A stretch of DNA of 61,402 bases, the filler included, from Bipalium vagum (Eukaryota), in the NCBI GenBank assembly GCA_037834085.1. It is 3 parts of 3 records of this genome, joined end to end, with 100 filler letters (N's around TTAATTAATTAA, not from the genome) between each part and the next. Parts side by side here need not be neighbours in the genome. Positions count along the whole stretch, not along the records: positions 40,644 to 61,402 come from JBBMKC010247316.1; 2 more parts are not named here. The stretch is one strand, 5' to 3'. Numbering within the stretch: position 1 is the first letter of the stretch; each line of letters opens with the position of its first letter. A model generated the notes under the pieces. It made no database searches, had not been told where the DNA came from, and saw only the letters and a list, made by a program, of their open reading frames with translations. The position numbers and the translations under genes are program-made. This document shows positions 55,181-55,477 of the stretch, piece by piece.

Positions 55181-55477
55181 TGTGAGATATATTGAAAATT
55201 AGTCGGGTGATGTAGCTCAGCGGTCAGAGCAGTGCATGCGACCACATCAGGAAACCAGCCAGCGGACGAGGTCTCGGAAGTAGAAATGTAAAGGAATTGA
55301 ATGGAAATAGAAGTAAAGAGACTCGGGACGGTTAAGGGTATGGATGTGAGGTTTAAAGGAGGGGGCTGTGAAATATATTGAAAATTAGTCTGGGGATGTA
55401 GCTCAGCATTCAGAGCAGTGCATGCGCATGTGAATGTCCCGGGTTCGAATCCCGGTATCTCCGATTAATTTTCAACA
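55181..55477 (+). mobile_element. Miniature LTR retrotransposon (TRIM, Helenus-like) with tRNA-derived LTRs; 5' LTR truncated
   Basis: Partial 5' LTR 55181-55240, about 125 bp non-coding interior, polypurine tract AAAGGAGGGGG (55355-55365) directly before a complete 111-bp 3' LTR TGTGA...CAACA (55367-55477). The LTR contains a tRNA-Ala-like cassette. No PBS (presumably deleted) and no clear TSD. Confidence 0.75.
55392..55463 (+). pseudogene. tRNA-Ala-like cassette within the LTR (not a functional tRNA)
   Basis: GGGGATG/TATCTCC acceptor stem, GCTC/GAGC D stem, CCGGG-TTCGAAT-CCCGG T arm, and A and B boxes are present. CGC lies at the anticodon position, but the anticodon stem (GTGCA/GTGAA) cannot pair and position 33 is not U. 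Confidence 0.8.

Follow-up and report, generated by a model that had tools for sequence, protein, structure and literature searches.

Helenus (TRIMp3) comprises TRIMs that carry tRNA-derived sequence in their LTRs, and has been recorded in animals, fungi, and one plant (Kojima 2024, PMC10886601). According to that paper, its LTRs measure 104-323 bp and its whole elements 311-1263 bp, LTR-to-interior ratios of 10-20 occur among its families (Table S3), the A and B boxes are retained while tRNA function is lost, and use of Pol III is stated as not validated. Table S1 of the same paper lists 115 animal families from six phyla, with a 4-bp target-site duplication (TSD) for 113 and an undetermined one for 2. 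Cassandra of plants and Ajax of nemerteans have 5S rRNA sequence in their LTRs, not tRNA as in the element described here (PMC10886601, PMC7215508); Ajax primes on tRNA-Leu, unlike the present element with its tRNA-Arg(ACG) site, and Cassandra RNA begins and ends within the small-RNA part (PMC10886601). Another flatworm TRIM with many solo LTRs, ta-TRIM of taeniid tapeworms, has a candidate autonomous partner with the same primer site; it differs from the present element by its tRNA-Leu primer, its 4-bp TSD in 52 of 57 cases and, in the accessible text of that report, the lack of any description of a tRNA-derived LTR (PMC4558846). The Mag lineage of Gypsy is autonomous and coding, whereas the present element is non-coding. 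In Culex, Mag elements have short LTRs, a 5-bp TSD in 20 of 21 rows, and in one family an Arg primer (PMC3286476, Table 1); Mdg1 primes on tRNA-Arg yet makes 4-bp TSDs (PMC3286476). In the accessible account of the flatworm Macrostomum, Mag is the largest group, with 78 of 137 LTR families.

We analysed a window of 61,402 nucleotides, filler included, from Bipalium vagum (GCA_037834085.1). The element at 55181-55477 is best explained as a whole as a damaged member of an abundant family of tiny, non-coding, Helenus-like retrotransposons with tRNA-bearing LTRs, to which we give a probability of about 0.85; its TRIM anatomy, taken separately, is very likely. As in Helenus, two LTRs surround a short non-coding interior (below ~1.3 kb) with a primer-binding site and a polypurine tract, tRNA-derived sequence in the LTR includes an A box (TRGCY, YGG) and a B box (GGTTC), sizes are in range, solo LTRs are many, and tRNA programs miscall the copies. 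These features bear out the Helenus-like, small-RNA-derived LTR family that the first-pass annotation had proposed from the sequence, and its suggestion that the family was unrecorded in this lineage agrees with Table S1 of PMC10886601, where no flatworm appears.

The element differs from the families of that paper in further respects. Its primer is probably tRNA-Arg(ACG), whereas the families listed there with an Arg primer come from wasps and use Arg-TCT, and its TSD is probably 5 bp, where each of the 113 animal families scored has 4 bp; it also has a leader-trailer hairpin, for which the main text mentions no counterpart (PMC10886601). The first 8 bases of the primer site were found nowhere in the supplement of that paper by exact search, and three flatworm names and three short motifs gave 0 matches there, kinship with the families of its Data S1 being compared by motifs only. 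Neither the Schmidtea genome paper nor the Dugesia preprint uses the word Helenus, and neither describes a TRIM in its accessible text. Searches of the openly accessible literature listed no earlier description of this kind of element from a planarian, and exact-pattern scans of metagenome contigs (twice), prokaryote genomes, and viral contigs gave 0 matches.

Structure of the element and its LTR copies

Evidence on other copies of the family comes from the contigs of one public run, X1, which contains 93% of the locus words and is possibly the window's own source, so that it is not independent. X1 was the single run listed with the locus, and the listing included no RNA run, which carries no information on expression. 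Within the window, BLASTN found three copies of the LTR unit, numbered 1 to 3 in the order of Table 1, and the next matches had only E 0.07 or worse. Copies 2 and 3 are 91.7% identical over 108 nt (E 2e-40, with 9 of 108 positions different), and copies 1 and 2 are 91.7% identical over 60 nt (E 7e-20); over the common 60 bp, five differences separate copies 1 and 2, three separate 1 and 3, and six separate 2 and 3. All three tRNA-like copies noticed in the first-pass annotation are thus real by BLASTN, but the first has only one half of the tRNA-like part, starting at 55206. Similarly, the two units described as direct repeats around a short interior do have the same orientation, standing 186 bp apart, but the first of them is only a 60-bp stump; the element runs from this stump through a purine-rich interior and a polypurine tract to the 3' LTR.

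In the complete copies the tRNA-like part is flanked by a 25-nt leader beginning TGTGA and by a GATTAATTTTCA trailer, just as described before. A unit length of 111 bp is correct for copy 2, which is 3 bases short near its end, but copy 3 and the X1 contigs have 114 bp. Only two matches in the window exceed the Rfam tRNA gathering score, 55392-55463 (+) and 61305-61376 (-).

Table 1. Features of the element and of the third LTR copy, with positions in the window
Feature	Position	Strand	Basis
5' LTR stump (copy 1): 25-nt leader from TG, then first 35 nt of tRNA-Ala-like part including A box	55181..55240	+	Identity 55/60 to copy 2, 57/60 to copy 3; contig run-offs at 55181/55180
Deletion junction: 3-nt microhomology GCG of mid-LTR and primer-binding site, ~59 bp lost	55238..55240	+	Sequence; LTR-end-to-55238 joints elsewhere; one 81-nt contig
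Primer-binding-site remnant, complementary to tRNA-Arg(ACG) 3' end	55238..55252	+	X1 joints; S. mediterranea ARG-ACG_tRNA_1 (PMC7962491, Table S1), by eye
Non-coding interior, 126 bp, 71% purine, without T4 run	55241..55366	+	Sequence; summed depth 12,800-23,900 vs 22-35 in flanks
Polypurine tract adjoining 3' LTR	55352..55366	+	Sequence; last base A in most other copies; bridging contig pieces, 6 of 8 listed
3' LTR (copy 2), 111 bp, TG...CA, near its end 3 bases fewer than in other copies	55367..55477	+	BLASTN; 217 contigs run off behind 55476
tRNA-like core, apparently tRNA-Ala(CGC)-derived: A and B boxes, broken anticodon arm, two A-box changes in copy 2	55392..55463	+	Rfam, 41.3 bits; by-eye comparison with S. 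mediterranea Ala tRNAs
Four-T run after tRNA-like core, candidate weak Pol III terminator (putative function)	55469..55472	+	Only T4 from 55206 to element end
Third copy, whole 114-bp LTR, no primer site behind	61288..61401	-	Rfam, BLASTN, sequence

By eye, the core of copy 3 is ~78% like S. mediterranea ALA-CGC_tRNA_5. It retains the A box, the B box, the acceptor stem with a G3-U70 pair, and the anticodon arm in its 3' half; the changes are concentrated at U33 and in the 5' strand of the anticodon stem, both of which are lost. Of the box letters, every copy has TAGCT, copies 1 and 3 have CGG, and copy 2 has GGTTC, which shows one change in copy 3. The anticodon stem is unpaired in both full copies, base 33 is G, and the discriminator is G. 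As judged from its sequence, the LTR core is a derivative of tRNA-Ala(CGC) and is not a working tRNA; G3-U70 is the alanine identity pair. ARAGORN called copy 2 a tRNA-SeC and missed copy 3, while Rfam passes both full copies, so that the earlier warning of miscounting as tRNA genes was justified. The broken tRNA-Ala gene in each LTR likely serves as the promoter.

The leader pairs with the trailer and lengthens the acceptor stem by ~13 bp (fold z -3.96 and -2.96, as against -0.74 without the leader); the inverted repeat is internal or sub-terminal, not at the LTR tips. The inverted match to the 5' end of the element apparently extends into the single-copy right flank (55461-55487, 27 nt, 78%), which may be chance or a local hairpin-guided change, and which blurs the 3' end of this copy.

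Behind the stump, the window copy retains 15 bases of a primer-binding site, a remnant overlooked in the first-pass annotation. Two rows with 4 contigs, among 15 of 73 joint rows listed from X1, join the LTR end (55473/55474) directly to 55238, and in three rows, among 12 of 84 with intervening letters, ACA is followed by TG and this in turn by the bases at 55238 or 55241. Therefore, the 5' LTR of other copies ends in ACA and runs straight into TGG, and since their LTR end is followed by TGG and the 55238 bases, the window copy must have lost ~59 bp, between two near-repeats sharing GCG. The deletion junction is spanned by one 81-nt contig (depth 25.8, 0 differences) that has 24 nt on its left, short of the 31 nt that the contig tool requires. 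The deletion looks real and single-copy, and this copy is likely dead after the loss.

Compared by eye with S. mediterranea ARG-ACG_tRNA_1 plus CCA, a tRNA from another genus (PMC7962491), the primer site pairs perfectly over its first 10 bases and at 15 of 17 positions overall, in the order of 10 pairs, one mismatch, one G-U pair, and 5 more pairs. ARG-TCG_1 and ARG-CCG_1 pair with it over 8 bases. The rough chance that TGG and 7 more bases match one of ~50 tRNA ends at a fixed place is ~5 in 100,000. This suggests that the primer is the 3' end of a tRNA-Arg(ACG) of planarian type. Self-priming by the LTR's own tRNA was rejected, because the core is Ala and the primer site is Arg.

The junction of interior and 3' LTR is bridged by 6 of the 8 contig pieces listed, with at least 31 letters on each side. 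These pieces have 20-35 differences and a depth of 19-25, which is the single-copy level, so they represent separate old copies. The purine tract had been placed immediately before TG; in this copy a C at 55366 intervenes, but the position is A in 75 contigs (11,796 of 12,546 depth, 94%), so the tract does abut TG in other copies. No Pfam match was found in the 2 element frames scanned, the interior hairpin is not beyond chance (fold z -1.01), and no ribozyme or other RNA family reached its gathering score, with merely 2 sub-threshold matches. The interior is without a T4 run, as are only 299 of 11,903 window stretches of the same length; this lends weak support to Pol III because composition explains it, 94% of interior shuffles being likewise without T4.

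Elsewhere in the window, exons of an AP-1 mu-1 gene lie at 1325-3690 (-), with 96% identity to Dugesia japonica over 89 residues, 62% to the next named match, and at most ~66% to named proteins of other animals, which places the host with the Dugesia-like planarians, and likely exons of a cGMP-dependent kinase gene at 17274-21317 (+), where PKcGMP_CC (E 4.6e-06) and a weak cNMP match are both under the curated cut-off. A weak reverse-transcriptase fragment (E 0.005) and broken mariner pieces (Transposase_1, E 9e-17; HTH_48) occur at 25259-25483 (-) and 26736-27334 (-), and the frames 19849-20172 and 56870-57178 are mariner-like by eye, without a Pfam match. An element of ~220 bp at 51908-52127 has inverted ends of 43 bp (88%), from which we take it to be a Tc1/mariner-like MITE. 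There are also a perfect head-to-tail duplication at 52338-52507 (86 bp, period 84) and a 95-residue frame at 59241-59528 (-) that resembles a small secreted peptide in its hydrophobic stretch and its cysteine-rich end and has no Pfam match.

The family in other copies

At 80% likeness, 3,741 of 1,835,864 X1 contigs map to 55000-55700. Summed depth rises from 22-35 to 10^4-10^5 solely between 55168 and 55479, with 22-35 in the left flank, peaks of 213,000-287,000 in the LTRs, 12,800-23,900 in the interior, and 23-54 in the right flank, and LTR depth is ~10-20 times interior depth. Among the 6 of 253 rows listed, loose contig ends at the LTR start number 69 before 55180, 105 before 55181, and 49 before 55367, and 217 contigs end behind 55476 at the LTR end. 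The family is therefore a high-copy one with sharp, fixed 5' and 3' ends. Summed depth is not equal to copy number, for which the 217 contigs leaving the LTR end are a safe floor, and the depth ratio suggests that LTR copies are in the thousands.

The first-pass annotation had proposed a search for copies with the order LTR, primer-binding site, interior, polypurine tract, and LTR. X1 provides this order through its fixed ends, its joints of the LTR end to TGG, and its joints of interior and purine tract to the LTR start. The whole element, assembled from joints and bridging contigs, has ~114 + 131 + 114 bp, or about 360 bp; this two-LTR anatomy is pieced from short contigs, with no complete two-LTR copy in one sequence. 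Single-copy contigs with 0 differences anchor both element ends and the junction to this locus, the junction contig by its 24 nt on the left. Copy 3 is likely a solo LTR, with just one left-flank base inside the window. The window end at 61402 falls one base before the start of that copy, as if the assembly broke at the repeat. Separately, 4 X1 contigs pass from the LTR end (55476) to the LTR start (55181) with letters between that are not known; they may reflect tandem arrays or a second interior type. One contig of 1,089 nt enters the interior at 55257 after 915 unrelated letters.

This copy has no exact target duplication in the 18 registers tried, the best agreement being 3/5 between its flanks ACTGT and AGTGG and 3/4 with the start moved by one base. 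In X1, the majority letters before TG are ATTAT, ATAAC, and ATCAT, and those after ACA are ATGAT (217 contigs) and ATTAC (2 contigs). They agree at positions 1, 2, and 4 in a 5-bp register and disagree in 4- and 6-bp registers, as majorities with an agreement of 0.42-0.52 over 30 letters in an AT-rich genome, in which left and right flanks are not matched insertion by insertion. Among the right-flank letters, a G at +3 may come from copies that bear the primer site. The base at -1 lies outside the element, because it is variable (105 vs 69 contigs), and the one visible left-flank base of copy 3 fits 5 bp, not 4 bp. On these flank letters, a target duplication of 5 bp is probable. BEL and Copia also make 5-bp TSDs. 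Copia-like ends (TG at 55178, CAACA at 55473-55477) were rejected, as contigs diverge at 55180/55181 and the flanks match at 2/6 at best.

Proposed cycle and competing explanations

By analogy with the standard LTR cycle and with Cassandra, Pol III would initiate near LTR base 26 and, in at least some rounds, read past the four T (bases 103-106) of the 5' LTR; it would then traverse the interior and halt at the four T of the 3' LTR. T4 is a leaky Pol III stop. The reverse transcriptase of a helper would then prime on tRNA-Arg(ACG) and jump between the repeated tRNA-like parts, the second strand would be primed on the purine tract, and insertion of the DNA by the helper integrase would probably create a 5-bp duplication. 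Recombination between LTRs would leave solo LTRs. In this copy, ~59 bp were later lost between short near-repeats. The leader would be present in the RNA solely at the 3' LTR, so the leader-trailer hairpin could bias termination to that end.

Transcription by Pol III appears likely on this analogy. With the LTR anatomy unchanged, Pol II or read-through from the host could instead produce the RNA, with the tRNA part as a passenger or in a packaging role, and the four T after the tRNA-like part would indeed stop a tightly terminating Pol III before the primer site; Kojima describes the use of Pol III in Helenus as not validated (PMC10886601), which leaves room for this as well. We consider it unlikely, because the A and B boxes have been retained while the anticodon arm decayed, and the mere 25 nt upstream would give little space for a Pol II promoter.

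A DNA transposase could also have moved the 114-bp unit as a tRNA-carrying MITE, with the primer site and the interior as the accident of a sub-family. The inverted repeat on which this would depend, the ~13 bp of leader-trailer pairing beyond the acceptor stem, is internal rather than at the tips, and the complement of a tRNA 3' end right after CA and a purine tract right before TG are not MITE features. The excess of LTR depth over interior depth fits a MITE, and DNA elements make up 50-65% of Dugesia repeats in the accessible text of the preprint (bioRxiv 10.64898/2025.12.11.693146), but ratios of this size are known in Helenus families (Table S3, PMC10886601). This explanation is very unlikely.

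A tRNA-derived SINE with chance LTR-like edges would account for the tRNA head with A and B boxes and for the high copy number in X1, and is extremely improbable in view of the fixed 25-nt leader upstream of the tRNA start, the 3' end fixed at one place without a tail, and the adjoining of primer site and purine tract to the LTR ends; in this the analysis agrees with the first-pass annotation. Both full copies pass the Rfam threshold and the assembly is gapped (6 N runs in the window), which might speak for a duplication of working tRNA-Ala genes or for an artefact of assembly. These explanations are hardly credible, since the anticodon stem is unpaired in both copies, the non-tRNA flanks are conserved, and 0-difference single-copy contigs tie both ends and the junction to the locus, so that a simple tRNA-cluster duplication, also considered at first pass, can be set aside.

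Of the 426 open frames in the window, 134 were scanned for a helper; they gave no autonomous element, only the mariner pieces and the one weak reverse-transcriptase match. A Gypsy helper is quite likely, because Gypsy makes up >90% of Dugesia LTR elements in the accessible text of the preprint (bioRxiv 10.64898/2025.12.11.693146). Its assignment to the Mag lineage is tentative, at slightly less than even odds. These parts may be joined into one picture, namely a separately born flatworm line of TRIMs with tRNA in the LTR, a Mag-type Gypsy helper (5-bp duplication, tRNA-Arg(ACG) primer), a hairpin termination switch, and solo LTRs, in thousands, acting as Pol III units for tRNA-Ala-like RNAs that keep G3-U70. 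In such a switch, the absence of the leader from the RNA of the 5' LTR would let the four T be read through, and its presence at the 3' LTR would extend the acceptor stem into the U-tract and force release. As a conjunction, this picture is rather improbable.

Significance for flatworm genomes

The mechanism itself is not new; what is new is the host phylum, and duplication length and helper may differ as well. Flatworms become the seventh animal phylum with a Helenus record, extending the 2024 list, and this locus supplies the interior, primer site, and purine tract, which solo LTRs cannot show. A 5-bp duplication, if true, breaks the 4-bp rule of animal Helenus as tabulated in PMC10886601 and suggests that the family arose independently and uses a different helper lineage. 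In a regeneration model, copies in the hundreds to thousands get through tRNA filters, so that tRNA counts become too high and the mapping of tRNA fragments is blurred. Since planarians permit RNAi and small-RNA sequencing, the Pol III claim for Helenus becomes testable in these animals.
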